From positions 96,001 through 160,000 of the forward strand of contig CAVWBU010000049.1 of the NCBI GenBank assembly GCA_963753345.1: a stretch of 64,000 nt of DNA, written 5' to 3'. Position 1 is the first letter of the stretch. Each line of letters starts with the position of its first letter. Made by a program: the position numbers and the translations under genes. Below, one piece after another: positions 22,145 through 40,326 of the stretch. This stretch comes from an uncultured Fibrobacterota bacterium. Its GTDB lineage: Bacteria; Fibrobacterota; Chitinivibrionia; Chitinivibrionales; FEN-1185. The notes under the pieces were generated by a model. The model saw only the letters and a program-made list of their open reading frames with translations. It searched no databases and had not been told where the DNA came from.

Positions 22145-22328
22145 TTGGCGCAAGAGGGGTAAATTGACAGAATAGATTCCCTCTGCCGCGCGCCAGGCCG
22201 GACTGGAAGGTGCGCTGGAGCGCATTGCCGCCTGATCCCTAGCCGAAGGCGGTTGGGACAGGCGGCAACGAGGCCGAAAGGCCGAGCCTGGAAGGAGGGC
22301 CGCCGCCGTACTGCGGCGGGGCGCCCAA
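22145..22328 (+). repeat. Structured repeat family B, copy B1 (candidate ncRNA or folded ssDNA element)
   Basis: TTGGCGCAA..TTGACAGAATAGATT..TGCCGCGCGCCAGG..GACTGGA..GGGGCGCCCAA; four further copies. Confidence 0.9.
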
Positions 22329-22438
22329 GTATTTTTTAGAATTGGTCATTATTTATTTGACCCTTTTCCCCCTTTTCCGCGACAATATAATAAGGAATAG
22401 GGAATCAGGACATAATCCAGGCGCGCGTGCCTCTGGTA

Positions 22439-22468
22439 TTGACTTGCCACAGATAGTAGTTGTATACT
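22439..22468 (+). promoter_or_regulatory. Sigma70-type promoter
   Basis: TTGACT-18 nt-TATACT upstream of ATG 22515. Confidence 0.5.
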
Positions 22469-22514
22469 CCATGGTATATAGACTGTTCCAATAACCCAAG
22501 CAAAGGAAACAGCC

Positions 22515-23907
22515 ATGAACAGCGTTAAAACCATCATTGCCATGGCCTGTGCCATGACTATTGCCGGTTCTTCCGGGGCGGCCACCATCTTTTCGGATAA
22601 TTTTTCGGACACCAATGCGTCCAAACTCAACTGGAACGCGCTGGCGGCGCAGGGATTTACGGCAACCTACCGGGAGGAGCGCTTGTGCTCAAGAACCCCG
22701 ATGCCACCTACAGCGCGTTTTACATGCATCTGTTCACCGGTACCAAGCCCTCCACGTTCAGCCTTTCGGCGACGTTTACCATAGCCGATTCCTCGGTAAA
22801 CGGCGCCGGCCTCATGTTCTGCCTCAACTCAACGACCGTTTCGGGTTACGCGACGCTGCTCGGCAACACGCAATATCTCTTTCTGCGTTAAGTACACAGC
22901 GTCCGCGCAGCCCGACCTAAAGGACAAGTTCAGCCCATTTATCAAGCAGCTTCCCGCCACGAACACAATCCTGGTCAGCAAGACGGGCAGCGTATTCGAC
23001 GTGTTCTGCAACGATCATTACATAACGCAGGTTCAGCGACGCGACCTTCGCAAGCGGCGACATCGGCATTCTCGTTCCTCAAAAGGCGACCATCAAGGTG
23101 GACAACGTGCTCATGACCGACCAGGCGACACCCCCACCCCTGTCGGCCTGCTATGCCGATTCCTTTCTGACAACCGCGAGCGACGCGTGGTCGAGCCCCT
23201 CTGCGGGTGAGGCCACCTTCGGCGGCGGGCAGCTGGTGCTCAACAACACCGACGCGGTTTATTCGAGCACCATCTACACCGACGGGATTAATCCGAAGGG
23301 GTCCATCAAGGCCGTGGTGTCGCACAAGAGCGGCGCCGGGGCCTACGGCGTTGCTTTTGTGGAAAGCGATTCGAACAGGGTGACGCCGTTCGCGTTTTGC
23401 GTCGACTCATCCCGCCACTACTCGATTGTCAACCCCGACAGCCCCACCATAAGCTCGCATATCGCGGTCGGGATCGTCTACGGCGGCCTCGGCACCGACA
23501 CCATCGAGGTCCTTCAATACGCCAAGAAATGGGTCTTTCTGATAAACGGCGGCGTGCAGGACTCCGTGCCCATTCCCGCCGATTTCCGCGTGGATGGGTT
23601 CGGGCTCTACGCGAGCAAGCAGACGTCGATGGCGTGCAGTTACTTTGTGGCCGGCGGCGACAGCACCGGCGCGAGGTGCGCCGCCCTTCCGGTGATATCA
23701 CGGATTCCCGCGCCTGGACTTAGATCCGCTGTGCCGGTTTTCGGCAGGGGGAGCACGGTATACGACGTGCGGGGAAGAAGGGTCGGTGTTTTTGACCGCG
23801 CAACATTCGGCAGGTCGAATTTTCCGGCCGGTCTTTACTTTGTGGTGCCTGCGGGCAGGAAAGTGGGAACCATGGGCGCGCTGCCGGTTCTAAAGACGGG
23901 TAACTGA
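22515..23907 (+). CDS. Secreted protein with two concanavalin/LamG-like beta-sandwich repeats and T9SS-type C-terminus; three frameshifts (near 22670, 22882, 23031)
   Basis: AAGGA RBS, signal peptide, IFSDNF. The segments join into one coherent protein with duplicated GG.LVL.N.DA.YS. C-terminal YDVRGRRV...AGLYFV. Confidence 0.65.
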
Positions 23908-23926
23908 AGTCCTGCGGCAATAGATG

Positions 23927-23960
23927 AAAAAAGCCCCGGTCAGTTGTGCCGGGGCTTTTT
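23927..23960. terminator. Bidirectional intrinsic terminator
   Basis: AAAAAAGCCCCGG-loop-CCGGGGCTTTTT between convergent genes. Confidence 0.85.
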
Positions 23961-23981
23961 CTTTTCGCGCTATTCGGCTTC

Positions 23982-24164
23982 CTATGTTTTTGCCATCGCC
24001 TTGAGGCATTTCATGCACACTTTCATGTGGCGTGACGTGCCGTTCACCTTTGTCTTTATGGTGCGAAGATTGGGGAAAAAGATTCTCTTGTTGACGTTGT
24101 GCGCGTGCGACAGGGTATTACCGGATTCCGGATGTTTTCCGCACACTTCACATGTTTTCGACAT
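23982..24164 (-). CDS. rpmB: 50S ribosomal protein L28
   Basis: MSKTCEVCGK..GN..SHAHN..KR.F.PNL...CMKCLK; AGGAGG RBS. Confidence 0.96.
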   Translation of the reverse strand: MSKTCEVCGKHPESGNTLSHAHNVNKRIFFPNLRTIKTKVNGTSRHMKVCMKCLKAMAKT

Positions 24165-24293
24165 AAAAGCCTCCTGATAATTTCGCGTTTGTTCCTTTTT
24201 GCAGGTGACTAATATAGATTATCCTCGTTTTATTATTCAAGGAAATTGGTTGGGGCTTTGTTAATATTCGTGAATCAATTAAGATAGAAAACG

Positions 24294-24455
24294 TGGGCGC
24301 CCCGCCACGCTGAAGCGTGTCGGCGGCCCTCCCTCCGGTCTCGGGCTCGCCCTCGGGCCGCCTCGGCCCTATGCCGCGAGTACGCGGCCGGGTCCGGGCG
24401 GCATCCCGCTCTAGCGGGACCTCCGGTCCGGCCTGGCGCCGGGCAGAAGACTATT
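24294..24455 (-). repeat. Structured repeat family B, copy B2
   Basis: Reverse complement reads GGCGCCAGGCCGGACCGGAGGTCCCGCTAGAGCGGGATGCCGCC...GGGGCGCCC. Confidence 0.88.
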
Positions 24456-24615
24456 GCCGATTTTATCTCATTGGCCGTTGGTACCAATTCAGGCCTGAGC
24501 GCAGGGAAGAAGTGAGCTACGGAGTCTTATCTTTATTGCAATCGCGGCGGGGCGTATTTTTTTAGGTGGAGGAATCCCTCGTCAGGATCATGCAAGAAAT
24601 TCCGGAAAAGAAATC

Positions 24616-25206
24616 ATGATAGAAGGCCTCAAGCCGTTCTATAATTCTGTCTTGAAACCTGTTGCGGACATTTTCGCAAAGGCCGGAATTCATCCCCATG
24701 CAATTAGCCTTGGCGGGGTCGTGCTGTCTGTCATTGCAGCGTATTGCTGCGCAAGAGGACATTGGCCGCTCGCCGCGCTGCTGGTGTTCTGCGGGTCATG
24801 CATGGACGGGCTCGACGGGCTCGTGTCGCGTGAAACGGGCAAGCAGACGCGCTTTGGCGCGGTACTCGACTCCGCAGCCGACAGGGTCACCGAGACGGCG
24901 TGGTTTTTCGGGTTGCTGCTTTACTACGCAGCCAACCCGACGCACGGCGAAGCAGGAATTTATCTTGCTTTTCTTGCCCATGCAGGCTCGCAGATGGTAA
25001 GCTATGTGAGGGCGCGCTGCGAGGGCGCGGGCATAGCGTGCAAGGAGGGAATCCTTCAGCGGCCCGAACGCATTGTCATCATCATTGCATGCCTCCTCTT
25101 GGGTCCCGCATTAATGTTGTGGGGACTCGGTATTATCGCCGCTCTCGGATTTGCCACCGCGCTGCAGCGCTGCGGCGCAGCATGGCGCGCCGGCAACAAA
25201 AGATAG
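24616..25206 (+). CDS. CDP-alcohol phosphatidyltransferase (PgsA/PIP-synthase-like)
   Basis: DGLDG..SR..G..T.FGA.LDS..DR signature; SYVRAR.E, RPER. Confidence 0.9.
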   Translation: MIEGLKPFYNSVLKPVADIFAKAGIHPHAISLGGVVLSVIAAYCCARGHWPLAALLVFCGSCMDGLDGLVSRETGKQTRFGAVLDSAADRVTETAWFFGLLLYYAANPTHGEAGIYLAFLAHAGSQMVSYVRARCEGAGIACKEGILQRPERIVIIIACLLLGPALMLWGLGIIAALGFATALQRCGAAWRAGNKR

Positions 25207-25228
25207 ACAATCGGAGGGATCGTCACCA

Positions 25229-26569
25229 GTGCTTCTCCTGTCGCTCAAGTTCTGGCGGGAATACCATACCAACCCGAAAGCGGCCCTGGAATCGCTGCGC
25301 ATCAACCGGCGCAGGATTTCGTACCCGGTTCTCAAATTTGCCACGTTCGTGCGGATCGTCTTCGATGAATACCTTCAGAACCATTGCATCACGCGCGCCT
25401 CCGCGCTGGCGTTTGCCCTGCTGCTCACCCTCATTCCGCTTCTGGTGTGCATTTCGCTGGTGATGACCAAAGTCATGGACGTGCCGCTGCCGCAAATGGA
25501 GAAGGTGCTGGCGTTTTTCCTCCCGTTCGCGCCCCAGACCGTGCTTGCGCACCTGAGCACATTCTTTACTAATGCGCAGAAGGTGAAGGGGTGGGGCATC
25601 GGCGTGCTCATCATTGTCACGCTGAGCCTGTTCGGCACCGTGGAAGAGGCGCTCAACATCATCTGGAAAGTGCCGCGGTCGCGCTCATTCTTCGTGCGCC
25701 TCCGCACCTTCACCATGGTGATGGTCTACAGCCCTGTTTTGTTCTTCGCTTCGTTTCAGGTGCGTCGCAACATCATGCCCGACATCAAGACGGTCTACAT
25801 TTACTCGCTTGACGTGCTCTCGTTCGTGCTCATCGTGCTGGCATTCACGGTTTTTGTCTGGGTGGTTCCCAACACCAAGGTAAGGTTCAGGCAGGCCGCC
25901 CTGGGCGGCATAGTGTCGGGCCTGCTGTTCGAACTCGAGCGCTACTGCTTTTCCCTGTATGTGAGCTTCAATGCGCAGACGCTCACCATCTACGGCGCGT
26001 TCGGGATCTTTCTCTTCTTTCTCATCTCGCTGTTTCTTGCCTCGTGCTTTGTCCTGTTCGGCGCCGAAGTCGCGTTTGTCGCGCAGAACTTCAGGCCGCT
26101 GCTCCGCGCCAAGAAACGGTGGGAACGGCGGATCAGCGACTACAAGACCTATATGAGCCTCCGCGTGATGATCGACGCCGTGTCCGCGTTTCTCGCGCAT
26201 AAAAATCCGCCCACCCTGTCCCACTTCATGAAGAAGTACGAGATGACCGAAACGCAGGCGCTGGGCATTGTAAACTCCCTGAAGCGGTGGGGGTTTCTCC
26301 ACTCGATAGGCGGCAACAGCAGCGGCAAGGACGCCTATGTGCCCACCCGCGATTTCGCTTCCGTTCCCCTGCGCGACGTGCTCGATGTCATCGAGGACGA
26401 AAACCGCTGCATCCCCACCACGCCCGACGACTTCGCCAGGAATTACGTGGCGGGCATCATCGCCGGCGTGCGCCAGCGGCCCGCGTCGCAGACCGATAAG
26501 TTGACGTTTGAGAAGCTCGTTGAGGAAATCGAGGAGGGGGAACGGAGGTTTCAGAAACCGGGGATTTAG
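25229..26569 (+). CDS. YihY/BrkB family membrane protein with C-terminal winged-helix-like extension
   Basis: ASALAF..LL.LIP, E.ALN.IW, VPNTKV, IYGAF, LFGAEV. Confidence 0.85.
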   Translation: MLLLSLKFWREYHTNPKAALESLRINRRRISYPVLKFATFVRIVFDEYLQNHCITRASALAFALLLTLIPLLVCISLVMTKVMDVPLPQMEKVLAFFLPFAPQTVLAHLSTFFTNAQKVKGWGIGVLIIVTLSLFGTVEEALNIIWKVPRSRSFFVRLRTFTMVMVYSPVLFFASFQVRRNIMPDIKTVYIYSLDVLSFVLIVLAFTVFVWVVPNTKVRFRQAALGGIVSGLLFELERYCFSLYVSFNAQTLTIYGAFGIFLFFLISLFLASCFVLFGAEVAFVAQNFRPLLRAKKRWERRISDYKTYMSLRVMIDAVSAFLAHKNPPTLSHFMKKYEMTETQALGIVNSLKRWGFLHSIGGNSSGKDAYVPTRDFASVPLRDVLDVIEDENRCIPTTPDDFARNYVAGIIAGVRQRPASQTDKLTFEKLVEEIEEGERRFQKPGI

Positions 26570-26622
26570 GGGCACGGACCGACATGAAAGTCTTCCCGCC
26601 GCAGATATAAATGGAGGTTCTC

Positions 26623-28410
26623 ATGAAATCATCCCGATTTTCTGCGGCTTTTGCGCTCGCGGCAGTCACACTCCTGTTTCTAACCGTTAATACCCAAGCG
26701 CGGCCGCTCGCATCTTCCGCTTCAATGGGCGGAACATTCTCCTTTGAGATGCACCAGGACACGATGGCGGATAAATATTATGCCGACGTGTTCGGCCCCA
26801 TCCCTCTTAGCGGCGCGCCTGCCGAAACTCTTTTCATTCCGCTTGCAGGCACCTACGCGGCCGGGACCCAGATTGCATCACCCGGCATTCCGTTTGTCAT
26901 CAAATATGTGTACCATGTCGAGTTGATGGATGCGGCCCAGAGTGTGAATGTGGTTGTGGCGAACAATTCCGGGGCAACCTTCGCTGCGCTGACTGTTAAC
27001 GCCGGGACCCTTGGCTCATCCACGATAAATAATCTCCAGCCCAATTCCTCCGGAAATTTGCAGTTCGATGCACGGGCGAAGACCATAGACAGCGTAATGA
27101 CCGTGTCAATCGCAGTCACGCCTTCAACAACCGGTGCGTTTGTCGCGGGAGACAACCTGCGGGTCATTTTTTCGCTCAACGGCCTTATTGCAACCAAGGT
27201 GGTGGCGCTCGATTCGATGCTTGCGGGATATCAGCGCATATTCACCAACGAGTATGCCATCACCGATACGTTGAACGTGGATTACCTGGACATCAGCAAA
27301 GGTTTTTTCAATTACACGGTGTTCAACTATACAGGCCTCGATCTGCAGCTGTCAATCGTTCATCGCAATGTGTGGCTGACGAGTTTCTGCAAAGGCAAAA
27401 TGCCCGCGCTTAACTCCATAACCGATCTCGTCGGCCTTACAATAACCGACTCAAACAATGCCTACGTAGGAGAGGTGACTCCAGGCTCCACTCGTATTGA
27501 TTTTTCCGCCGGGCAGGCCGACAGTTTTTCCAAGACCAATTTGTCCGGCTGCCGTCTCTTCCCGGAGTGGGATTCTGCAATGAAGAAATCCGTCACCAAG
27601 GTCGACTACATTATAAATGCAGGCGTGTACGGAAGGCGGGTGACCCTCTTGGCCGGCGATTCGCTTTCTTTCGTCATCAAGACCGTGATGTTTAAATACC
27701 TTGACATATCCGGAACGGTCATGGAATCCTACCATCTACCGGGCTTTTCTCTCACGTTTGCAGTACCGCCATCCTGGACCGCCGGTTCCGGTCCGAACTT
27801 GTTCGAATACTATATTGCCGTCAACATGCCGAACGGGGCGCTTCTGGACACCCTTGGCACTGCACAAAAAATCTTCGGCACCAAGAACCCCGCTATAAAC
27901 TGCCAATGGCTGGCGAATATCGCTCACGCCGCCAACAACGCAACTGTCAATGAACAGGTGGACATCTCCCCGGTGCTTGGCCCCAAACCGGATTCGATGT
28001 GCTTCACCGAAGAGAACACTATTCCTGCAGGCACGAAGGTTCTACTGGTTAATGACCTGACTGATCCGACAGATTCGTCCTATGCCAAGCACATCGGCCG
28101 CATGACCATCCGCGACAGCATCGCGTTTGCGCCTTCCACCATTGTGGAGTACGACCCCGTGGCACCCTTGTCATTTGCGTGCCAAGCGGCGTTCCCGGTC
28201 CTCCGGTATTCTCTGCCCCGGCAATGCCGTGTGAGCGCCGATTTCTACGACATGAAGGGCAGGCTGGTCTACTCGTATGTCAACAAGAGCCAGGGCCCCG
28301 GTTCGTATGCGCTGAGAATTCCAACGGCACCATGGCCGCACGGCATGTATTGCATGGTTTTCAAAGCGGGGAGTTTTGGGAAGAGGGAGAAAGTGGCGGT
28401 AGTGAGGTGA
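26623..28410 (+). CDS. Secreted protein with T9SS-type C-terminal domain
   Basis: GGAGG RBS, signal peptide, C-terminal YSLP...FYDMKGRLV...GMY. Confidence 0.75.
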   Translation: MKSSRFSAAFALAAVTLLFLTVNTQARPLASSASMGGTFSFEMHQDTMADKYYADVFGPIPLSGAPAETLFIPLAGTYAAGTQIASPGIPFVIKYVYHVELMDAAQSVNVVVANNSGATFAALTVNAGTLGSSTINNLQPNSSGNLQFDARAKTIDSVMTVSIAVTPSTTGAFVAGDNLRVIFSLNGLIATKVVALDSMLAGYQRIFTNEYAITDTLNVDYLDISKGFFNYTVFNYTGLDLQLSIVHRNVWLTSFCKGKMPALNSITDLVGLTITDSNNAYVGEVTPGSTRIDFSAGQADSFSKTNLSGCRLFPEWDSAMKKSVTKVDYIINAGVYGRRVTLLAGDSLSFVIKTVMFKYLDISGTVMESYHLPGFSLTFAVPPSWTAGSGPNLFEYYIAVNMPNGALLDTLGTAQKIFGTKNPAINCQWLANIAHAANNATVNEQVDISPVLGPKPDSMCFTEENTIPAGTKVLLVNDLTDPTDSSYAKHIGRMTIRDSIAFAPSTIVEYDPVAPLSFACQAAFPVLRYSLPRQCRVSADFYDMKGRLVYSYVNKSQGPGSYALRIPTAPWPHGMYCMVFKAGSFGKREKVAVVR

Positions 28411-28454
28411 GGAACGATGGCGATGAAACTGGTGATACAAGTTCAGCACAACTG

Positions 28455-28506
28455 GAGATTGCTTCGCGGAGTTTATCCCGAGTTCTGTCGAGTGGCTCGC
28501 AATGAC
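28455..28506 (+). repeat. REP-like element GAGATTGCTTCG...CTCGCAATGAC (single copy here)
   Basis: ATTGC..CG / CGCAAT arms enclosing GTTTATCCCGAG..GTCGAG. Recognised from memory as a widespread palindromic repeat type. Confidence 0.5.
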
Positions 28507-28551
28507 AATCATTCCTTTCAATCTACAAATGCGAATGTTCATTGCAGATCC

Positions 28552-28708
28552 CACTGCTCTCCAAGGGTGCCCCCGCACAGGTGCTTGATTCTTGCAACCG
28601 GCCTCTCTAGGGGGACACCCTGGAGAGGGGAGTGTCGAGGACCGTAGGGCCGAGACCGGGGGAGACGACCCTTGGAAGTACCCGACGGGGTAAACTTCTC
28701 CCCCGACA
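28552..28708 (-). repeat. Structured repeat family A, copy A4
   Basis: Reverse complement shares GAAGTTTACCCCGTCGGGTACTTCCAAGGGTCGT with A2 and GAATCAAGCA.CTGTG.GGGGCACC...AGAGCAGT with A5. Confidence 0.85.
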
Positions 28709-28764
28709 TTATGTCTTTCAAAATTATCGGGTTGCCTTCTTAAATCCCTTCACACTCTTCGTCA

Positions 28765-29523
28765 TCACCTTATCATTCTCCCCTTATTCTTCAAATTCTC
28801 CTCAACAATCTTTACCAACGCGCTTCCCACAATCGCGCCATCTGCCCCGGCCGCTTTCATGTGACGAACATGATCGGGTGTTGAAATCCCGAACCCGACG
28901 TATAGTGGTTTATTCGTCACTTTTCGGAGCCTCGCAAGCGTGGTATCAACGGTCACATTGAGTTTTCTCTGCACACCTGTCGTTCCCAAACGCGAAACAA
29001 CATACACAAAGCCGGTGACGTGCTTGCATATATATTGCATGCGCTCATTGGGCGTGAGTTCCGAAACAATATATACGGTTTGCAAACCATGCTTTCTCAT
29101 TGCGGCGGAAAGCTCGGCCGATTCCTCGGGCGGCATGTCGGCGACGAGCAGGCTGTCTATGCCGCTATCGGCCGCGCGTTTGCAGAAGGTATCATAGCCA
29201 AGGTGCCGTGCCGAATTTGCGTACATCAATATTCCTATGGGGCAATCGGAATACGCGCGGATATTCCTAATGAGCCTGAAAAAAGACGCGTGCGTCAAGC
29301 CGGCATCTATGGACCGTATCGCGGCGCGCTGGTTGATCGGGCCGTCGGCAACGGGGTCGGAGAAAGGGTAGCCGATTTCAAGGATGTCCGCGCCGCTGTC
29401 GATATATGCCTTGAGAATCGACTCGCTCGTCCGAATGTCCGGGTCACCCGCAACGGTGAACGGGACAAATGCGATTTCGTTGTGCTGCTTGAGCGACTTA
29501 AAAATATTTGAATATCGGTTCAT
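28765..29523 (-). CDS. trpA: Tryptophan synthase alpha chain
   Basis: AGDP, EIGYPFSDPVADGP.NQ, VSR.GTTG, VGFGI, GAIVGSA. Confidence 0.95.
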   Translation of the reverse strand: MNRYSNIFKSLKQHNEIAFVPFTVAGDPDIRTSESILKAYIDSGADILEIGYPFSDPVADGPINQRAAIRSIDAGLTHASFFRLIRNIRAYSDCPIGILMYANSARHLGYDTFCKRAADSGIDSLLVADMPPEESAELSAAMRKHGLQTVYIVSELTPNERMQYICKHVTGFVYVVSRLGTTGVQRKLNVTVDTTLARLRKVTNKPLYVGFGISTPDHVRHMKAAGADGAIVGSALVKIVEENLKNKGRMIR

Positions 29524-29538
29524 GATATTTTCTCGCCG

Positions 29539-29573
29539 TTAACTGCCAACTGTCAACCGTCAACTGTCAATTA
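29539..29573. repeat. Heptamer tandem tract filling the trpB-trpA spacer
   Basis: ttaactg ccaactg tcaaccg tcaactg tcaatta. Confidence 0.8.
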
Positions 29574-29577
29574 TAGG

Positions 29578-33542: not shown

Positions 33543-33638
33543 AAAAAACTCCGGATTTCTATTCTATTTTCTGGATGAATGAGAGTGTTTGCGACAATGG
33601 AAAATACAATAGGGGAGACGGCAAATTAGTTGAAGATT

Positions 33639-33831
33639 TTGGGCGTTCCCCCATGTAGAGTCTCTACATGGGGGCGGCCGTGCTTCCGGTCTCGGCCTCC
33701 GGCCTCGGGCTGCCTGCCACGAATGCCCTGCGGGCCGTGGTCAGGCAGCACCGCGCTCCTGCGCGGCCTCCAGTCCTGCCTAACGCGCGGCAACGGAATT
33801 CTATTCAGTCAACTATTTCTTTCCGCGCCAA
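33639..33831 (-). repeat. Structured repeat family B, copy B3
   Basis: Reverse complement reads TTGGCGC..TTGACTGAATAG..TGCCGCGCGTTAGG..GACTGGAGG..GGGGAACGCCCAA. Confidence 0.9.
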
Positions 33832-33873
33832 AACGCATGCGCACACATCAACTAACGTTTCTTTCTTTACTTT

Positions 33874-33985
33874 TCAACGCTTCAACTATTCAACGTTTCA
33901 ACGCTTTTCTTCTCAACTCATCAACGCTCCAACGCTCGAACGCTCCAACTCTTCAACTTCTCAACTCCTCAACTTCTCAACTTCT
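33874..33985. repeat. Octamer tandem tract (TCAACNNN, more than 10 degenerate units) overlapping the Mur ligase stop
   Basis: tcaacgct tcaactat tcaacgtt tcaacgct ... tcaacttc tcaactcc tcaacttc. Confidence 0.8.
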
Positions 33986-35339
33986 TCCTTATCTCCTCCA
34001 CCAGCGCCGGCAAAGAAGGATCTCTTGCGCCCATCACAAGCACAACATCACCAGCCCCGGTGTGCTGCTTGATAAGCGCGACAAGTTCAGCACGGTCGCG
34101 CGGGGCGGATACGGTTTTGCCCTTGTCCCGCACGAGGCCGGCGATAATGTCCGACGAGATGTCCTTCTGTGCGGTGCCGCCCGCGTAATAGATGGGGAGG
34201 AGAAACAGCATGTCGTCGGATGTCAATTCCTCTGCGAACATGGCGACGAATTCGTCCTTGAGGAACCGGGTGGGGCCGAAGCCGTGCGGCTGGAACACTG
34301 CAAGCACGCGAGGGGAGAGCAGGCGTGCGGCACGGATGGCTGCGCGGATTTTTTCCGGGTTGTGGGCGTAATCGTCGATGATGCGGATGCCGTTCTGTAA
34401 AGTCACCACCGAAAACCTGCGCTGCACGCCCTGGTATTCCGCCGCCGCGTGGGCCAGGGACGGCCCGTCGCAGCCGAGCGTGTCGCACACGCACAGCGCG
34501 GCCAGAAGGTTCGACAGGTTGTGCGCTCCGGGCAGCGGAAGGGTGTAGGTGACGCCGCCGCGCGAAAATGAAATCCCGGGCGCAATGGTAAAGCCCTTGT
34601 CGGGCGCGAAGTCTCCCTCGAGACCGAAGGTGCGCTGCGCGCCGAGGACCGCGAGCTGCGGGTCGTCGGCGTTGGCAACGGTGATGTTCGACTGTCTCGC
34701 CAGCGCGGAAAACAGGCAGAGCGTTTCGGGCACGGGCTTGTGGTCCTTGGACACGTTGAGGAACACGCTCAAGTACGGTTTGTATTTTGCGCACGTGCCG
34801 TCACTTTCGTCCGCCTCGATCACAAGGATGTCCGACGTGCCCATAAAGGCGTTGCCCGCAAGCCCCTGCTTTTCCAGGCGCACAAGGCCTGCGCCTGAAA
34901 TGAGCGAGGGCGACTTGCCGCATGCGTCAAGGAACTCCCATATCATTGCCGCGACGGTCGATTTTCCGCTCGTGCCCGCGACCGCGATGGTCGCCTTTGA
35001 TGCCACGACCGCCGCGAGCACATCGGACCGGTGAACGATCGCTATGCCCGCGGCACGCGCGGCCGCGATCTCGGGGTTTGTCTCCTCGATTGCGGTGGAC
35101 ACCACGAGCGCGTCGGTGCCGCGGGTGACGCCGGATCCGTCCTGCGGAACAAGGATGCAGCCGAGCTTGACGAGCTTGTCCTGGAGGTCCAGCACGTCCG
35201 CCGAATTGAGAAGACGGTCTGAGCCGGACACAACCACGCCGTCCCATGCGCAGTACTGGGCGATCGCGCTCATGCCCGAGCCGAGGATGCCCGCGAAATG
35301 CAGGCGGCGGCACGACACGCCGTTAATCGATAACGACAA
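33969..35339 (-). CDS. Mur ligase, MurC/Mpl-like paralogue
   Basis: HFAGILGSGMS, AGTSGKST, EADESDG, DDYAHNP, FQPH. Confidence 0.88.
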   Translation of the reverse strand: MSLSINGVSCRRLHFAGILGSGMSAIAQYCAWDGVVVSGSDRLLNSADVLDLQDKLVKLGCILVPQDGSGVTRGTDALVVSTAIEETNPEIAAARAAGIAIVHRSDVLAAVVASKATIAVAGTSGKSTVAAMIWEFLDACGKSPSLISGAGLVRLEKQGLAGNAFMGTSDILVIEADESDGTCAKYKPYLSVFLNVSKDHKPVPETLCLFSALARQSNITVANADDPQLAVLGAQRTFGLEGDFAPDKGFTIAPGISFSRGGVTYTLPLPGAHNLSNLLAALCVCDTLGCDGPSLAHAAAEYQGVQRRFSVVTLQNGIRIIDDYAHNPEKIRAAIRAARLLSPRVLAVFQPHGFGPTRFLKDEFVAMFAEELTSDDMLFLLPIYYAGGTAQKDISSDIIAGLVRDKGKTVSAPRDRAELVALIKQHTGAGDVVLVMGARDPSLPALVEEIRKKLRS

Positions 35340-35853
35340 GCATACCCTCCGGAACGTGGTCGAACAGTTCCACGATGTCCGCGTTCTTCATGCACACGCA
35401 GCCGTGCGACGCGGGCGCGCCCACGGACTTCTCGTTGTTGGTGCCGTGGATGTAAATGTACCGCTCATAGGAATCGATGCCCTCGCCGCGGTTGATCCCG
35501 TCTTCGCATCCTTCGAGGCGCAATATTCTCGTAAGGATAAGATTCTCGCCCGGGACGCCCACGGTCCATGTTTCTCCTGTGTCAAGGCGGTCCCGAAATA
35601 CCCTGCCCACGGGCGCGCCGTGGCCGTATTTTTCCTTCACCCGGTGCACGCCCGCGGGCGTCATGAGCGAGCCGTCGGCGTTGCCCACGCCGAACCTCGA
35701 CGACGACACCGGGTATTCCTTCACGGCAACGCCGTCAACCAGGCGGTACAGCCTCTGTTTCGCAATGTCGACAAACAGGAATTTCTGCGGCGTTGCGCCG
35801 CACGTCCGTTTGAGGCGCTCCTGGGCGTTCCGCAAACGCACTGCATCGATCAT
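35323..35853 (-). CDS. L,D-transpeptidase (YkuD family)
   Basis: VDIAKQRL, YPVSS, TPAG, IYIHGT...SHGC motif. Confidence 0.9.
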   Translation of the reverse strand: MIDAVRLRNAQERLKRTCGATPQKFLFVDIAKQRLYRLVDGVAVKEYPVSSSRFGVGNADGSLMTPAGVHRVKEKYGHGAPVGRVFRDRLDTGETWTVGVPGENLILTRILRLEGCEDGINRGEGIDSYERYIYIHGTNNEKSVGAPASHGCVCMKNADIVELFDHVPEGMLVVID

Positions 35854-35974
35854 GGACACTTCTCCTGCCGCGCCGGGAGGACGCAAAGTAAACTTGTTGT
35901 AGACATGCGCACCGTAATAAAATATAATCAATATCTGCAACGAGGCTCACACATCAGCGGAAAGGCAGGCCATC

Positions 35975-36655
35975 ATGAACGGTAAACCGGCGCAGCAGCC
36001 ACAGCTTCTCTCGAACGACGACACGTGGCGCATCTTCCGCATCATGGCCGAATTCGTTGAAGGGTTCGAGACCCTGTCGAAAATCGGCCCGTGCGTCACC
36101 ATTTTCGGGTCGGCGCGCACGGCCGCGGGCGACGTGTACTACGAGATGGCCCGTTCGGTGGCTTCGCTTGCCGTCAAGCACGGCTACGGGGTGATCACGG
36201 GCGGAGGCGGCGGCATCATGGAAGGCGCCAACAGGGGGGCATTCGAGGCCAACGGAACGTCGGTGGGGCTCAACATACAATTGCCGTTTGAGCAGGTGCC
36301 CAACAAGTACATCAAGCTCCTGCTGAGCTTTCGGCATTTCTTCTGCCGCAAGGTGATGTTCCTCAAGTACACCTCGGCGGTTGTCGTGCTGCCGGGAGGT
36401 TTCGGCACCATGGACGAACTGTTCGAAACGCTCACGCTCATCCAGACCCACAAGAGCGAAACGCTGCCGCTTGTCATTATGGGAAAAAGCTACTGGGAAG
36501 GGCTCATTGCGTGGCTGCGCGCGGGCATGCTCGGGAAAGGATACATTTCTCCGGAGGATTTCGATCTCGTGAGGCTCACCGACGATCCGCAGGAAACCAT
36601 CGACATCATCAACACGTTTATGAAGAAGCGCAGCACGCAGGTGAATTTTTCCTGA
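35975..36655 (+). CDS. LOG family nucleotide phosphoribohydrolase (TIGR00730-like)
   Basis: FGSAR, TGGG.GIME.AN.GA, RK.MF, PGGFGTMDE. Confidence 0.92.
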   Translation: MNGKPAQQPQLLSNDDTWRIFRIMAEFVEGFETLSKIGPCVTIFGSARTAAGDVYYEMARSVASLAVKHGYGVITGGGGGIMEGANRGAFEANGTSVGLNIQLPFEQVPNKYIKLLLSFRHFFCRKVMFLKYTSAVVVLPGGFGTMDELFETLTLIQTHKSETLPLVIMGKSYWEGLIAWLRAGMLGKGYISPEDFDLVRLTDDPQETIDIINTFMKKRSTQVNFS

Positions 36656-36689
36656 CGGGAATCTATTTGTGCAAATAAAAAGTTTGTTG

Positions 36690-36718
36690 TTGACAAATTG
36701 TTTCGTGGAAGATATTAT
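36690..36718 (+). promoter_or_regulatory. Near-consensus sigma70 promoter
   Basis: TTGACA-17 nt-TATTAT. Confidence 0.75.
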
Positions 36719-36853
36719 TTATATGGAAGCAGGCGGGAACAACGCCCGCTTCCGATAAGTAAACAAACGAAATGGGGCTTGCGGTCCGACGAGTAACGAG
36801 TAAGTCCGCGCAAGTTCCGAGTTTCCCGTCCTCATCCAAAAGGAGGTGCTGCC

Positions 36854-36916
36854 GTGGCAGCGAAGAAGAGGAAAAAAGTCGCGAAGAAAAAAGCGACGAA
36901 GAAAAGGAAAAGATAG
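36854..36916 (+). CDS. 20-aa Lys/Arg-rich small protein MAAKKRKKVAKKKATKKRKR
   Basis: AAGGAGGT RBS with AGGAGG 7 nt before GTG; own promoter and terminator; too short for the ORF track. Confidence 0.7.
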   Translation: MAAKKRKKVAKKKATKKRKR

Positions 36917-36949
36917 GTCTTTCGTTCCTGCACGATGTGCGCAGGCAAG

Positions 36950-36978
36950 GCGGGTGGACGTGATGTCCGCCCGCTTTT
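36950..36978 (+). terminator. Intrinsic terminator
   Basis: GCGGGTGGAC-GTGAT-GTCCGCCCGC-TTTT. Confidence 0.8.
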
Positions 36979-37020
36979 GATTTTTAGGTTAGAGAATGGG
37001 AATCGAAAAGTTACTAATGG

Positions 37021-37152
37021 TGTCGGCGGGGGAAGTTTCCCCCTCGCTCCGGCCGCCTTCGGCGTCCTGCGCTACCCCCTCCTGGGTGCACCCCAAGTGG
37101 AAGCAGTGGCTGAATCAAGCATCTGTGTGGGGGCACCTACGTAGAGCAGTTG
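37021..37152 (+). repeat. Structured repeat family A, copy A5
   Basis: GGGGAAGTTTCCCCCTCGCTCCGGCC..TCCTGCGCTACCCCCTCCTGGGT..GGGGGCACC. Confidence 0.9.
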
Positions 37153-37259
37153 TGAAGGCATTCCTTTTTCTCACTCAGTTTTGTTTGATCCGCCACAAAA
37201 TGGCGCATTATTTATTGCCGGGGCAACGCCCCGGGGCGACAAACAGAACAATGTATATT

Positions 37260-37310
37260 TCCCCTCTCCACTTTTGGAGAGGGGTGGCCGTGACAACGGC
37301 CGGGGTGAGG
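37260..37310 (+). repeat. REP-like palindrome, family D copy 3
   Basis: CCCCTCTCCA-CTTT-TGGAGAGGGG...GGGGTGAGG. Confidence 0.7.
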
Positions 37311-37331
37311 CGACGATTCTGAGAATTCCAC

Positions 37332-37508
37332 TTGGCGCAACTATTGCAACTTGACAAAATAGATTTCTTCTGCCGCGCGTTAGGTGGACCGGAGGGCGCG
37401 CAAGAGCGCGCTGCCGGTCGACCCGGCCGATAGGCATAGGGCGATCCGGCAACGAGGCGAACAGCAGAGCCCGCAGGGAGACCGACCCCGCGAAGCGGGG
37501 GAACGCCC
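37332..37508 (+). repeat. Structured repeat family B, copy B4
   Basis: TTGGCGCAA..TTGACAAAATAGATT..TGCCGCGCGTTAGG..GACCGGAGG..GGGGAACGCCC. Confidence 0.9.
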
Positions 37509-37686
37509 TGGTCTTATTTCTCTATTCCCTCCCAGCTATAATTATTGCACCCCGGTCTGGCATCTTTTAGATTTATTCCGCCTTGCGAAAGCATTACCGG
37601 GCAAAGATGTCCGCCGGGATGCCATGCAAATTTGAACGGCATGAGAGCATGGACAGCGCAAGGCTTGATACCCCTTTGTTAAGGTC

Positions 37687-39873
37687 ATGAAAGAATACTC
37701 CGCATACATCTCCGACACGTGGAACATCTCCGAGCCGCTCGCCAAAGAACTGTGCGAATGCTACGAAAAAGGGTATTCCCCGTATTACTGCGCCGACTAC
37801 CGGCCCGCGGTCGCGGTTGAGCTCGACGCCGCCGGCGTGTGGCCGATCTTCGATTTCCTCCGCACTATGGTCGAGCTATCGCCGAAGAAGAAGCGGCTTC
37901 TCAACGCGCTTAAGAAAAGCGGGAAGCTCACCGGCGACCTGGAAAAGCGGATCGTGCACAGCGCGAATTCCTTCGAGCTCGACGATATGCTTTTGCCGGA
38001 ACGGCTCAACCCGCGGAGCAAGGGACAGCTTGCGCTCAAGAAGGGGCTGGGCGAATGCGCCGACGCCATTCTTGCGCAGCAGGAAACAGGCGCTTCCCTC
38101 GATGACCTTGTCGCGCCGTACGTAGGGAAGGACCCTACGGTCGCGACGCAGGACGCCGTAATTGCAAATGTCAAGGACATCATCGCCGAGCGTTTCGCCT
38201 ACGACGAAACCGCGCGCGCCATGGTGCGCGAATTCATGTACGACGACGGCTTCTTCGAAGTCGTGCCCAAGTCGAAAACCGACGAGAGGTTTGCCCGCTT
38301 TGCCGGCAAACCGGCGCCGGTGCGCGAGGTTTCGAAGGAGGATCTCCTGATGCTCCTTGCCGCGGAAGACGGCAAACTTGCGCGCGTCAAGCTCACCGTG
38401 CAGCTCTTCCGCATCACCGAGCTTCTCAAGCACCACTTCGTGGTCAATCCCGACGCCGCCGGCTTCCCGCTCATCAGCGAGGCCATCGACGACAGCTGGG
38501 TGCGCCTGCTGCAGCCCATTGCCGAACGCGACGTCAAGGCGCGCCTGCGCGCCGAAGCCGAAGACTGGGCGCTCGGCGTCATCCGGCCGGACCTGCAGAA
38601 GCGGCTTGCCGGGGAAGGCGAGGAAAAATCGTGCATCGCCTGCGGGGTTCACGACAAGAAGACGTTCGCGGTCGTCGCGTGCAGCACGCGCGGGCGCCTG
38701 TACGGCGCGGCGGTCGAAAAGAAAATCCCGCTTGACAAGCCCGCGGTGAGCGAGCGCCTCAGACAGTTCGTGCTGCGGTACCATCCCGAGCGCATCCTGG
38801 TGGCCGACAACGAAAGCGCCGCGATCGCGGAGGCCATCATAGCAAAATCACTTGACGCGCTCCCGGCGGTCCCCGCGGTCGAGCGGGTCAAGCGGGCCGG
38901 GGGGCTTCCCGACATTGCGGCATCGGAATGGATGAAAAAGGAATGCGCCGATCTCGAAGAACCGATGCAGCACGTATTTGCCGCGGCATTGACCTGCCTT
39001 CAGCCCCTGCGCCTTCTTCCCGTCCTCGGCGCCGAATACTTTTCCCTTCATCCGCTGCAGGCCTGCGTCACGCCCGCCCGTTTTTCGGAATGCGTCGACC
39101 GGATCGTTGTCGGCATGAGCATCGCCCGCGGAATCTCCCCGAACGATCTTTCCGAAACGGTGCTGTCGCCGAACTTCGATCCGTTTGCAGGCGATGCCTT
39201 GCGAAAGGAGATCGCGTCCCGGTGCCAGAAGGCGCCGTTCGCCGCCAAGGACGACCTGCTCAAGGTGCCCGGCATCACCGAAAGCGCGTTCCGCAATCTG
39301 GCGGGCTATGTGGTGATTCCAACGGCCGATTTCGCCCTCGACCGCACCATGGTGCATCCCGACCATTTTTCGTGGATCGGCGAGATGTGCGAGTTTCTGC
39401 AGCTCCCGCCCGACGCGCTTGTGAACGACCCCGAGGCGGTCCGCTCGTTCCCGGAATCCGACTTCGCAAAGAAACTCTTTATCGAAAAGAAACTCATCGA
39501 CCAGCTTGCCGCCGGCCGCAGGTCCGCCGCGGCCGCGCTCGCCAAGCCCCGGCGGAAGCTCAAGCTCACCGAGATCGAGGAAGGTTCGGTGGTGAACGGC
39601 CGGGTGACCAACATCACGCCGTTCGGCGTGTTTGTCAACATCAACGCGGTGTGTGACGGCCTCATCCACATTTCACAGCTCGCCGACACCTATGTCGAAT
39701 CGGCCGACCAGGTGGTGAGCGTGGGCGACGTGATAAATGTCCGCGTTCTCAAGGTGGACATCAAGAAGCGGAGAATCTCGCTGTCGATGAAAGGCCTGGG
39801 CCACCAGGGCCCCAAGGTTTCCCCCTCAAAGCGCCAGCTGTCGGACCTTGCCTCTCATTTTCAGAATCGCTGA
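37687..39873 (+). CDS. Tex-like protein with C-terminal S1 RNA-binding domain (divergent)
   Basis: Tex N-terminal pattern (G.SP.Y.A.YR), HhH (KVPGI...F.N.AG), LDRT.VHP, S1 (GRVTNITPFGVFV...GLIHISQL). Confidence 0.85.
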   Translation: MKEYSAYISDTWNISEPLAKELCECYEKGYSPYYCADYRPAVAVELDAAGVWPIFDFLRTMVELSPKKKRLLNALKKSGKLTGDLEKRIVHSANSFELDDMLLPERLNPRSKGQLALKKGLGECADAILAQQETGASLDDLVAPYVGKDPTVATQDAVIANVKDIIAERFAYDETARAMVREFMYDDGFFEVVPKSKTDERFARFAGKPAPVREVSKEDLLMLLAAEDGKLARVKLTVQLFRITELLKHHFVVNPDAAGFPLISEAIDDSWVRLLQPIAERDVKARLRAEAEDWALGVIRPDLQKRLAGEGEEKSCIACGVHDKKTFAVVACSTRGRLYGAAVEKKIPLDKPAVSERLRQFVLRYHPERILVADNESAAIAEAIIAKSLDALPAVPAVERVKRAGGLPDIAASEWMKKECADLEEPMQHVFAAALTCLQPLRLLPVLGAEYFSLHPLQACVTPARFSECVDRIVVGMSIARGISPNDLSETVLSPNFDPFAGDALRKEIASRCQKAPFAAKDDLLKVPGITESAFRNLAGYVVIPTADFALDRTMVHPDHFSWIGEMCEFLQLPPDALVNDPEAVRSFPESDFAKKLFIEKKLIDQLAAGRRSAAAALAKPRRKLKLTEIEEGSVVNGRVTNITPFGVFVNINAVCDGLIHISQLADTYVESADQVVSVGDVINVRVLKVDIKKRRISLSMKGLGHQGPKVSPSKRQLSDLASHFQNR

Positions 39874-39908
39874 TATCAAGTTTTTCACTTTCTCCCAATG
39901 AATTTGCT

Positions 39909-40058
39909 GGTGGGGGAAGGCTCCCCGTCGCTCCGGCCCTGCGCTCGTCACATCAAAGTTCGTCTTATTCCGCGCAGGTCCTGCGCTGCCCCCTCATGGG
40001 TAGCCGCCTTGACAAAGCAGTGGCAAGACCATGCAATGCTGTGGCGGCACCCACGAAG
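39909..40058 (+). repeat. Structured repeat family A, copy A6
   Basis: Close relative of A1 (GCCGCCTTGACAAAG..CATGCA..GCTG.GGCGGCACCCA). Confidence 0.9.
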
Positions 40059-40127
40059 AATAGTTGAGGAGTTGAGAGGTTGAGAAGTTAATAGGAAAAC
40101 AATGATTTACTCCTTGAAGATTCCGGC

Positions 40128-40326
40128 TGGCGCAATAAGAGTAAATTGACAGAATGGATTTCTCCTGCCGCGCGTTAGGGGCGACTGGAGGTCCCGCTAG
40201 AGCGGGATGCCGCCCGGACACGCCGCGAAGCGGCCTCGTGCCGAGGCGGCCCGAGGCCGAAGGCCGAGACCGGAAGGAGAACCGACCCGAGCCTGAGTCT
40301 TGACGAAGGCGAGGGGAACGCCCAAG
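40128..40326 (+). repeat. Structured repeat family B, copy B5
   Basis: TGGCGCAA..TTGACAGAATGGATT..TGCCGCGCGTTAGG..GACTGGAGG..GGGGAACGCCCAA. Confidence 0.9.

Follow-up and report, generated by a model that had tools for sequence, protein, structure and literature searches.

Copies of an eight-helix repeat fill hundreds of intergenic gaps in a Fibrobacterota bacterium and its relatives

Copies of an eight-helix repeat, family B, fill hundreds of intergenic gaps in an uncultured Fibrobacterota bacterium and its relatives, and the repeat matches no catalogued RNA. Its copy number, its fold and the selection acting on that fold, its strand asymmetry, the order of the mosaic to which it belongs, its position rules and its turnover are shown by the analysis. 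We tentatively propose, with a probability of roughly 45%, that family B is an interspersed, non-autonomous repeat akin to REP, BIME and BOX elements that works as a folded single strand, most likely RNA, with a boundary role in cis, and that turns over by recombination or through an enzyme. The initial annotation had named a noncoding RNA and a folded single-stranded DNA mobile unit as the candidates; this is the right pair of alternatives.

A covariance model trained on 20 further copies of the same genome found exactly five matches (E 7e-17 to 1.5e-26) in the window, the 64-kb stretch of DNA analysed here. They are the five copies that the initial annotation had listed, all with the correct place and strand, and its spans include approximately 40 nt of an upstream AT-rich module besides the core. 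This module is present at B1, B3, B4 and B5 and absent at B2. Specifically, the B1 core, with its eight-helix fold, lies at 22184..22328 on the plus strand (cmsearch 132.3 bits, E 5.8e-26), preceded on that strand by an A element (21850..21999, nhmmer E 6.9e-39), a GTTGR tandem tract read from the sequence (22000..22125) and the AT-rich module (22133..22183; nhmmer match 22133-22343), for which the consensus of 196 full copies reads TTGGCGC-N12-TTGACAGAATAGATT. The B2 core (24293..24445, minus strand; 90.2 bits, E 6.8e-17, and alignment) lacks both the upstream module and an A element. Also on the minus strand, the B3 core (33639..33792, 135 bits) lies upstream of lepA, in a gap that is also occupied in genomes G004 and G005; its module (33793..33844; nhmmer match 33623-33844) is joined to the murC stop by a short tandem tract of GTTGR words with a period of about 8, visible in the sequence (33845..33968). 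The B4 core (37371..37510, plus strand, 94.4 bits) lies upstream of a Tex-like S1-domain gene, with its module at 37320..37370 (plus strand; nhmmer match 37320-37525) and, upstream, an A element at 37025..37141 (plus strand; nhmmer E 9.4e-27 and sequence) that is separated from B4 by about 180 nt of other hairpins. The B5 mosaic begins 35 nt past the stop of the S1-domain gene with an A element (39908..40055, plus strand; nhmmer E 4.5e-42 and sequence), followed on the same strand by a GTTGR tract and spacer identified from the sequence (40056..40114), the module (40115..40165; nhmmer match 40115-40336) and the core (40166..40325, 118.8 bits), the 3' end of which is 48 nt from the stop of the convergent argS.

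Across the genome, G000, an nhmmer census gave 431 matches, comprising 258 copies with the upstream module, 101 cores only and 72 partial copies, which together account for 1.77% (about 1.8%) of the DNA. The 359 near-complete copies in 4.516 Mb correspond to one per 12.6 kb, in good agreement with the earlier estimate of about one per 13 kb, and the five copies listed belong to a family of hundreds. Family B forms the 3' part of a larger intergenic mosaic repeat (median 434 nt), in which the A element, the GTTGR tandem tract, the AT-rich module (TTGGCGC-N12-TTGACnGAATAGATTTC), the B core and a T-rich tail follow one another in fixed order. Of the 258 full copies, 175 are preceded on the same strand by an A element, at a median gap of 74 nt, and none has one downstream or inverted. 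Likewise, GTTGR words occur 2.62 times per 150 nt upstream of full copies versus 0.14 times downstream.

The B core is a 145-nt unit of eight helices that folds on one strand only; its covariance model contains 40 pairs in 11 helix segments with three branch points. P1, a 5-bp closing stem, is followed by P1b and P1c, short helices with purine-rich internal loops, which lead into a four-way junction bearing the hairpin P2, the long arm P3/P3a and the small hairpin P4, the latter closed by tandem G-A pairs. P5 is a side hairpin located directly before the 3' P1 strand, and CGCCCA ends the conserved block. A conserved CCA follows the closing stem. The stems first proposed from the window copies (GCGTT/AACGC or GCGCC/GGCGC, hairpin 1, and GCCGCC/GGCGGC or GCTGCC/GGCAGC) are real and covary genome-wide. 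In the 209 copies in which the closing stem could be parsed, the TT/AA form occurs 138 times, CC/GG 58 times and mixed forms 13 times, while 140 of the 349 distinct copies lack the anchors and were left unparsed. The WRGA loop ascribed to hairpin 1 holds for the five window copies but for only 112 of 229 parsed copies genome-wide, where CAGA, CAAA and CATA are also common. The last hairpin, initially taken to vary freely, instead consists of a few module types, with long near-perfect palindromes inserted at its tip.

That the structure is under selection, as had been suggested, is borne out by covariation, by the association of helix strands, by double changes and by distant copies. In an alignment of 127 copies, taken from the window and from 20 stretches chosen for high copy density and fitted to the model, 94.2% of cells are paired versus 80.1% in shuffles, both sides are altered in 32 of the 40 pairs, and the covariation score is 0.332, reached by none of 500 shuffles, versus 0.120; partners slid out of register score at most 0.058. 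The two strands of each helix are associated with a Cramer's V of 0.58–0.89, even at a separation of about 110–130 nt, versus 0.17–0.46 for most non-partner modules, including the neighbours P1c and P2, with the exception of P5 and the P1 strands (0.65–0.73). Among 57 independent nearest-neighbour pairs, we counted 61 pair-keeping double changes, 66 disruptive single changes and 41 single changes passing through G-U, where a paired-site divergence of 7.2% per site predicts only about 11 double changes. Beyond this genome, the covariance model finds matches in 27 of 151 genomes of the phylum and in 16 of 54 genera; in other species and genera, both the fold and the unpaired junction letters are retained. 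An alignment of 21 copies from other genomes is 93.9% paired versus 71.9%, with both sides altered in 35 of the 40 pairs and a covariation score of 0.468 versus 0.132. In distant copies, AGG.AGGAC.G.AGG, CCGAG, GAG.CCG.AAGGAGG.CCG and CGCCCA are kept, yet every helix has changed.

At stem positions, mismatches are strongly asymmetric (G-A/A-G 153 versus C-T/T-C 36; G-U 120 versus A-C 43), which indicates that one strand folds. This asymmetry does not separate RNA from DNA, because the GNA triloops and Y-GA-R tandem G-A pairs that are frequent in family B are stable motifs of RNA and single-stranded DNA alike. A rival reading is a free-standing RNA gene family, in which a new class of structured RNA (a self-cleaving ribozyme, a ribonucleoprotein scaffold or a sponge), transcribed from its own module upstream and ending at the T-rich tail, would have multiplied in the lineage. 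Throughout the order all helices vary but the purine-rich junction letters hardly do, a pattern known from ribozymes and protein-bound RNAs and consistent with such a gene. The Shine-Dalgarno-like AAGGAGG within a conserved internal loop and the non-canonical A-C/C-A covariation that flanks P4 fit it too. In line with this, the conserved block stops sharply at CGCCCA, with T-rich sequence starting 3–5 nt later, and 258 of the 359 near-complete copies in G000 and G001 carry the conserved AT-rich module at a fixed distance. However, the module is not a consensus sigma-70 promoter, a simple scan having found none at B4 or B5; outside G000 and G001 it recurs only in parts (TTGAC in G004 and G005, GAATGGATTT in G018), and 101 copies lack it. 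Moreover, no pseudoknot or tertiary pair stood out in a mutual-information scan, and we know of no function that requires dispersed gene copies by the hundreds. Searches for known RNAs argue in the same direction: Rfam 15 gave no family at gathering score in the whole window, and a scan of 22000-24600, covering B1 and B2, at E<=10 gave chance-level matches only. The best sub-threshold match on an element, Twister-sister, scored 19.1 bits (E 0.93), where its gathering score is 34. We therefore regard a free-standing RNA gene family as quite improbable. These scans also contained no Flavo-1 match, and we found no positive likeness to that motif, which the element ends had been thought to resemble. 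A tRNA- or tmRNA-like gene was rejected as well, ARAGORN having called none in the window.

The positions of the copies follow clear rules. The A element starts a median of 24–30 nt behind a stop codon, and the B end lies 14–19 nt from the stop of a convergent gene, while start codons are 56–125 nt distant. Of 345 copies flanked by called genes on each side, 104 (30%) lie in convergent gaps, versus 470 of 3059 gaps (15%) overall, and 31 of 359 copies share more than 40 nt with a crudely called gene. These rules bear on whether B is a cis-regulatory leader, a riboswitch or attenuator of the gene downstream. B1, B3 and B4 do face a downstream gene, and the median distance from the B end to the next start codon in co-directional gaps is 56 nt. 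However, 173 copies have their downstream gene on the same strand and 181 on the opposite one, 104 copies lie in the convergent gaps, the adjoining genes are unrelated in function, and occupancy of the same gap differs between species. A leader is thus close to refuted by orientation and extremely improbable, whether as a riboswitch, against which the initial annotation had argued, or as a gene-specific leader. Within co-directional gaps, 109 sense and 72 antisense copies amount to a mild orientation bias.

Sister species differ in both occupancy and copy content. Among 15 sites filled in G001, nine hold a copy in G000 and six are empty or different there; at five analysable sites the cores are 59–71% identical and the flanks 82–91% identical. 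The gap between the S1-domain gene and argS holds an element on the plus strand in G000, an inverted one in G005 and none in G004, and only G001 and G002 have the trpB site filled. Such turnover would suit a second reading of the folded strand as single-stranded DNA, whereby B or the whole A-to-B mosaic would be a non-autonomous mobile unit whose shape is recognised by an enzyme acting in trans during replication or repair, transcription being incidental. REP/REPIN elements are recognised by RAYT in such a way, and IS200/IS605 ends by TnpA. The near-random orientation relative to genes points the same way, as do the stable DNA motifs noted above and the long palindromes at the P5 tip, which are nearly all Watson-Crick. 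Additionally, short 3'-end remnants are found behind full copies, intergenic orphan 3' motifs number 50 versus 14 for a reversed control motif, and in 134 of 225 cases the element strand matches the local GC skew, which ties it weakly to the direction of replication and would suit a DNA intermediate.

On the other hand, in G000, the genome with most copies (assembly 94% complete), Pfam searches for Y1_Tnp (PF01797), the TnpB zinc ribbon (PF07282) and RVT_1 (PF00078) gave no matches. Elsewhere, PF01797 has eight matches in G002 and two each in G004 and G005, PF07282 has none in the five genomes searched, with matches in control genomes, and PF00078 has none in G005, like G000 a repeat carrier. 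An IS200/IS605 derivative (PATE) or TnpB omega-RNA was rejected on these grounds, as was a retroelement-borne RNA (group II intron, retron or SINE-like). Transposase load does not track the repeat, since DDE_Tnp_1/rve/Y1 matches number 147/36/8 in G002, 2/1/2 in G004 and 7/1/0, plus one IS110-type gene, in G000. Genes flanked by inverted B copies included no nuclease or recombinase among the eight scanned of 18. No terminal inverted repeats or target duplications are visible at three filled-versus-empty comparisons, where the flanks have diverged. With regard to a MITE, a cut-down DDE insertion sequence, the only likeness of the ends is one of 4–7 nt between 5' TTGGCGC and 3' GCGCCCAA, and the DDE genes of G000 are few. 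The copies are also old, with a median nearest-neighbour identity of 88.6% and only 19 of 357 at >=95%, and a 145-nt eight-helix recognition structure far exceeds the known sites of single-stranded DNA transposases, all of which are, to our knowledge, far smaller. Mobile single-stranded DNA is therefore possible, if somewhat unlikely.

Comparison with known systems is consistent with the interspersed-repeat reading. BIMEs of enterobacteria are mosaics of REP sequences with other motifs, and REP/REPIN units, often in inverted doublets, pair with RAYT transposases, whose gene is typically flanked by repeats. Like them, family B has hundreds of extragenic copies just behind stop codons, enriched between convergent genes, with compensatory stem changes, several modules in fixed order and orientation, and occupancy that varies between relatives. 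Unlike the REP sequence, a 20–40-nt imperfect palindrome, B is a multi-junction fold with conserved unpaired letters that forms on one strand only, and the two have no sequence likeness; with no PF01797 match in G000, a REP/REPIN system with its own RAYT was rejected. BOX elements of Streptococcus pneumoniae, built of boxA, a variable number of boxB and boxC, likewise form a three-part intergenic mosaic whose two structured end modules enclose a variable middle, occur in both orientations and have no transposase of their own. In contrast, the middle of the family B mosaic is a tract of 7–8-nt words rather than a 45-nt unit, its A and B modules fold separately without mutual pairing, and lineage and sequence differ. 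The bcr1 repeats of the Bacillus cereus group and ERIC/IRU, structured repeats of about 125–155 nt reported to be transcribed, resemble B in length, in a conserved predicted fold with compensatory changes and in dispersed intergenic position. They form one long imperfect hairpin with terminal inverted repeats, whereas B forms a four-way junction with a side hairpin, and inverted ends were sought in B and not found.

For the non-autonomous repeat that we favour, the RNA would come either from read-through of the neighbouring gene, the mosaic starting so close behind stop codons, or from its own upstream module. Several observations weigh against this reading: as noted above, the module lacks a consensus promoter and recurs only in parts elsewhere, the T-rich tail does not resemble a classic terminator tail directly behind a hairpin, and a simple terminator scan flagged the B4 end through no more than a 5-bp stem. 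A role in cis cannot hold for about one-fifth of copies unless these are transcribed on their own, because 72 lie antisense in co-directional gaps. Covariation in a mobile family can also arise because master copies are selected for mobility and not for a service to the host. In the trp gene row of G001 and G002, a sense copy lies about 40–75 nt before the trpB start, which disfavours strong termination and indicates that read-through of copies is tolerated. Between sister species, copies turn over by replacement, gain and loss, for which recombination among copies or a candidate mobilising enzyme is probably responsible. We propose that the folded RNA may serve transcripts in cis as a stable end or boundary rather than as a ligand switch.

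The five family B elements reported by the initial annotation are present at their places in the window and align with one another over ~210 nt. A covariance model seeded with 20 other copies from the source genome (G000), selected for equal length, returns exactly five matches in the window, with E-values of 7e-17 to 1.5e-26 and cores at 22184-22328 (B1, +), 24293-24445 (B2, −), 33639-33792 (B3, −), 37371-37510 (B4, +) and 40166-40325 (B5, +). Across the G000 assembly (4.52 Mb in 55 contigs, 56% G+C), in which the window is bases 96001-160000 of contig 49, an nhmmer profile of the five window copies finds 431 matches at E ≤ 0.01, comprising 258 full copies with an upstream AT-rich module, 101 copies of the core only and 72 partial copies. 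B thereby covers 80,154 bases, or 1.77% of the genome, with a near-complete copy every 12.6 kb. Rfam 15 yields no family at gathering score over the whole window, and the likeness to the Flavo-1 motif suggested earlier did not hold, as Flavo-1 is absent even from a permissive Rfam scan over B1 and B2 that gives chance-level hits only. ARAGORN finds no tRNA-like genes in the window. In titles and abstracts, the literature on Chitinivibrio and on Fibrobacter repeats or structure mentions no such repeats; the Fibro-purF motif (PMC7668255) is a separate, purF-specific one.

The consensus fold of the 20 seed copies (RNAalifold) contains 40 pairs. A 5-bp closing stem P1 (GCGYY/RRCGC) is followed by P1b and then by P1c, which contains a symmetric GGA/GGA internal loop and opens into a four-way junction carrying the hairpin P2, the long arm P3/P3a and the small hairpin P4, the last flanked by C-GA-G on either side; P5 is a side hairpin immediately 5' of the 3' strand of P1. 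Among 127 model-aligned copies, drawn from the window and 20 stretches picked for copy density, standard pairs occupy 94.2% of cells versus 80.1% in shuffles, and 32 of the 40 pairs have changed on both sides. The covariation score of these copies is 0.332 versus 0.120 when shuffled (0 of 500 shuffles reach 0.332), and it is at most 0.058 when the partner column is slid by 1-3. Because related copies can inflate pair counts, two further tests were applied, namely helix-strand association and nearest-neighbour pairs. Specifically, both strands of each helix, some of them ~110-130 nt apart, are linked with a Cramer's V of 0.58-0.89, whereas most non-partner modules, including neighbours such as P1c and P2, reach 0.17-0.46, the exception being P5 against the P1 strands (0.65-0.73). 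Most helices have therefore moved between copies with both strands together, a pattern for which simple descent of subfamilies fails to account. Additionally, 57 independent nearest-neighbour pairs, with a paired-site divergence of 7.2% per site, hold 61 pair-keeping double changes where ~11 double changes of any kind are predicted. Single changes in these pairs number 66 that disrupt pairing and 41 via G-U. The excess of double changes is in part module exchange rather than stepwise compensation.

The folding strand of B is the strand as given. Stem mismatches are asymmetric, with 153 G-A/A-G versus 36 C-T/T-C and 120 G-U (51 of them at one fixed P2 pair) versus 43 A-C, and this asymmetry does not separate RNA from DNA. 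A mutual-information scan for tertiary pairs or a pseudoknot recovers nothing beyond the known helices, linked neighbours and a single A-C/C-A pair near P4. At the latter, columns 239/240 with 399 of alignment A4, on either side of P4, split almost evenly between AA...C and CC...A (62 A-C versus 60 C-A), a non-canonical covariation at the junction. The helices themselves fall into distinct types. Among 229 copies with a parsed P2, out of 349 distinct copies, the four main forms are GTGAGC/GCGAAT with a tandem G-A (55), TCCCGC/GCGGGA (51), CCGCGC/GCGCGG (41) and GTGCGC/GCGCAT (28), and among 209 copies with a parsed P1 they are TT/AA (138), CC/GG (58) and mixed (13). P5 occurs as a short hairpin, as a 32-nt hairpin with two G-A loops, or with a tip that holds a 19-22-bp near-perfect palindrome. 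One truly orthologous pair, G000 C30:24435-24726 and locus L073:951-1171 of the relative G001, is identical by eye at nearly all aligned core positions and differs exactly by a palindrome of ~25-30 nt in the P5 tip; P5 is a site of gain and loss of a small palindrome.

B is part of a larger mosaic. A second structured repeat of ~145 nt, A, lies upstream of B1, B4 and B5 and is composed of a GGGGGAAGGCTCCCCC hairpin, a variable hairpin and CGCTACCCCCTCCTGGGT...GGGGGCACC. In the window, A elements are located at 6240-6384, 21850-21999, 37025-37141 and 39908-40055 on the + strand, with a partial one at 28565-28643 (−); G000 holds 277 A matches, of which 257 span 90 nt or more, and Rfam contains no match for A. 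Together, A and B make up ~2-3% of the genome (80 kb of B and 257 A copies of ~145 nt). A is the fixed upstream partner of B: a same-strand A precedes 175 of the 258 full copies (median gap 74 nt), none of the 258 has A downstream or inverted, and 5 of the 101 core-only copies have A. The tract between A and B is filled by GTTGR words with a period of 7-8, as at window 22000-22125, 33845-33968 and 40056-40100; their density per 150 nt is 2.62 upstream versus 0.14 downstream of full copies, and 132 of the 258 carry at least three. Tracts beside copies in other genera differ (for example, TACTCCTACT repeats in genome G112), and TCTACAA tracts precede some orphan B 3' ends in G000. From end to end, the mosaic measures a median of 434 nt (180 copies). 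A consensus scan finds no sigma-70 promoter in the upstream module of B4 and B5. The Bacteroidetes-type −7 promoter motif is TAnnTTTG, and fitting it to TAGATTTC is guesswork. Taken together, B very probably belongs to the REP/BIME/BOX kind of interspersed repeat, as a mosaic selected for its structure and built from a far more elaborate unit.

Genes were called crudely by codon usage (3114 genes, 78% coding). The five window copies lie beside ordinary named genes, namely trxB, lepA, murC, trpB, argS, a LOG-family gene and an S1-domain gene. Genome-wide, 173 B copies have a downstream gene on their own strand, 181 have one on the opposite strand and 5 have none. Co-directional gaps hold 109 sense versus 72 antisense copies, convergent gaps hold 104 and divergent gaps 60, out of G000 totals of 2127 co-directional, 470 convergent and 462 divergent gaps. 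Given these totals, the counts follow no leader-like rule and amount to a roughly twofold enrichment in convergent gaps. A riboswitch or other leader was rejected on this orientation relative to genes and is nearly excluded. The near-random orientation would suit a single-stranded DNA mobile unit, as would the turnover between species described below. The strand of B matches the local GC skew 134 times out of 225; for genes the figure is 243 of 449. Within gaps, the stop codon lies a median of 24-30 nt before A, the end of B lies 14-19 nt from the stop of the convergent gene, and start codons are 56-125 nt from the mosaic. The mosaic fills 47 convergent gaps almost wholly, so flanking transcripts must enter it. 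The organism uses ordinary terminators too, since the gene at 23098-23907 is followed by a classic intrinsic terminator with a GC hairpin and a T run at window 23930-23965 (+). A 20-codon lysine/arginine-rich ORF at window 36854-36916 (+), with a GTG start 7 nt behind a perfect AAGGAGG and a terminator-like hairpin 3' of it at 36947-36977, may be a gene for a tiny basic protein.

Beyond G000, BLAST detects B in four of the five other genomes of the genus, and neither in G003 (same genus, 99% complete) nor in 25 other genomes of the order. The covariance model is positive in 27 of 151 genomes of the phylum, in 16 of 54 genera; this survey scored 21 candidates per genome, so that its copy numbers are lower bounds. 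In seven other genera the helix sequences differ, and one form is devoid of P2 and most of P3, while the unpaired letters AGG.AGGAC.G.AGG, CCGAG, GAG.CCG.AAGGAGG.CCG and CGCCCA are kept. In 21 copies from other genomes, 93.9% of cells are paired versus 71.9% in shuffles, 35 of the 40 pairs have changed on both sides, and the covariation score is 0.468 versus 0.132. The invariant junctions would suit a free-standing RNA or ribozyme, a reading that we regard as improbable. The upstream module is not intact outside G000 and G001, with parts recurring in G004, G005 and G018, and a T-rich stretch lies 3' of most of the relatives' copies. In a pattern scan of contigs, the matches listed are mostly chance: 2 of 80 loci tested pass the B model, both in one Fibrobacterota MAG, and none of the eight viral contigs that matched a 20-nt motif passes it. 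The loose pattern AAGGAGGNCCG...RRCGCCCA has one ~49-nt match in each of many Collinsella genomes (L098, L100, L103 and ~15 more loci); none of these passes the B model, and they are probably an unrelated conserved sequence of that genus.

Comparison of orthologous gaps reveals turnover between species. Upstream of lepA, G000, G004 and G005 carry a sense copy, each of a different P2 type, while G002 retains a 3' remnant and G003 has neither. Between the S1-domain gene and argS, the mosaic is present in G000 and B is inverted in G005; G002, G003 and G004 are without B there. A sense copy lies ~40-75 nt before the trpB start, between trpB and the preceding gene, in G001 and G002, and the two genes abut in G000, G003, G004 and G005. 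The trpB start of G000 (window 30712-30760, −) has a nine-A run with one extra base relative to G002, G004 and G005, so that the first ATG is not in frame with the conserved N-terminus (GYFG.FGG); either a frameshift or a homopolymer assembly error accounts for this. Of 15 G001-occupied sites mapped through both flanking sequences, 9 carry a copy in G000 and 6 lack one. At the five analysable shared sites, cores are 59-71% identical and flanks 82-91%, and the zone of low identity is roughly as long as the entire mosaic; most shared sites do not hold the same copy in the two genomes. Within G000, nearest-neighbour identity has a median of 88.6% and reaches at least 95% in 19 of 357 copies, some of which are assembly duplicates. 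On sequence comparison, B thus appears to be an old family in continuing replacement and exchange, with no recent invasion. One or two extra 3'-terminal pieces of B, comprising the P5 3' strand, the P1 3' strand, CCCAA and the T-rich tail, occur in tandem 14-50 nt behind some complete copies (behind copy 1501-1698 at L069 on G001 contig 492; G000 C16:113773, C16:247496 and C19:18018), as if copies had been replaced successively at the same spot. Short 3' remnants of B occur; in a test for retroelement-like 5' truncation, biased by nhmmer detectability, fragments are anchored 27 times at the 3' end and 27 times at the 5' end. Among the public runs listed for window 31700-41600, 13 DNA runs from 6 studies, none is on record as RNA. 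In contigs of four DNA runs over 21000-40900, no clean joint (empty site) is seen across any of B1-B5; these contigs break at repeats, and the joints recorded link two copies or have a short side. One 4176-nt contig that spans 22572-26571 appears to carry ~280 nt less than the window around B2.

In a search for a mobilising gene, the models for Y1_Tnp, the TnpB zinc ribbon and RVT_1 draw no match in G000, although control genomes are positive. Its transposases are one IS110-type gene, seven DDE_Tnp_1 matches (three of them identical and short) and one rve. G002 has 147 DDE_Tnp_1, 36 rve and 8 identical Y1 transposase matches, with 87 candidate B copies in a first look versus 364 in G000; G003, without B, has 0 DDE_Tnp_1, 1 rve and 0 Y1; and G004 has B and almost no transposases. 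Neither the IS110-type, the DDE_Tnp_1 nor the rve genes track the repeat across G000-G005. Self-BLAST of the crude gene set, which missed the three short DDE copies, finds no gene family of more than three members in G000 except 14 glycoside hydrolase family 2-like enzymes of ~935 aa, some in tandem (C15:73311-76112, C18:62076-71316 and 11 more). Of the 18 genes flanked by inverted B copies, the eight scanned are all ordinary or of no known family, with no nuclease or recombinase among them. No inverted ends or target duplications of B are seen, in flanks too diverged for certainty. Exchange between copies by recombination would fit the mosaic pattern of modules. A single-stranded DNA mobile unit, for which the near-random orientation and the turnover speak, is the less probable reading next to the RNA form set out below.

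Several features favour RNA over DNA as the putative folded form of B: the conserved purine-rich junctions, the tolerance of G-U and G-A on one strand, the T-rich end, the position of the mosaic just after stop codons, where any read-through transcript must include it, and the lack of known single-stranded DNA transposases in G000. By analogy with REP, from general knowledge, B may act in cis as a stable transcript-end or boundary structure. We put the combined reading, a REP/BIME/BOX-kind repeat that folds as RNA and has a cis role at transcript ends or boundaries, at roughly 0.45. A more far-reaching proposal is that the B core, with its eight helices, invariant purine-rich junctions, SD-like AAGGAGG loop and conserved ...CGCCCA end, represents a new order-wide class of large structured RNA that is active, either as a self-processing ribozyme or bound to a conserved host protein as its RNA partner. 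Transcript ends at about one tenth of gene gaps would then be marked or processed by B, which would spread as RNA or with the partner's help. We consider this a long shot.

In the few well-studied bacteria from which interspersed structured repeats are known, these are short palindromes. The B unit is as elaborate as a riboswitch or a small ribozyme, and its shape and unpaired letters are conserved across an order of uncultured Fibrobacterota. With hundreds of diverged copies per genome, the family is an unusually deep natural alignment for work on RNA structure. The repeats also break metagenome assemblies, with public-run contigs ending at them and summed contig depth over them ~10-50 times that of neighbouring genes, and they produce spurious ORFs. 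As none of the three enzyme classes (Y1, TnpB, reverse transcriptase) is found in the most copy-rich genome, how B spreads and persists becomes a testable question. If the B core does prove to be an active RNA, such 'junk' repeats of bacteria would amount to an RNA-based system that spans the genome, and not to passive palindromes.
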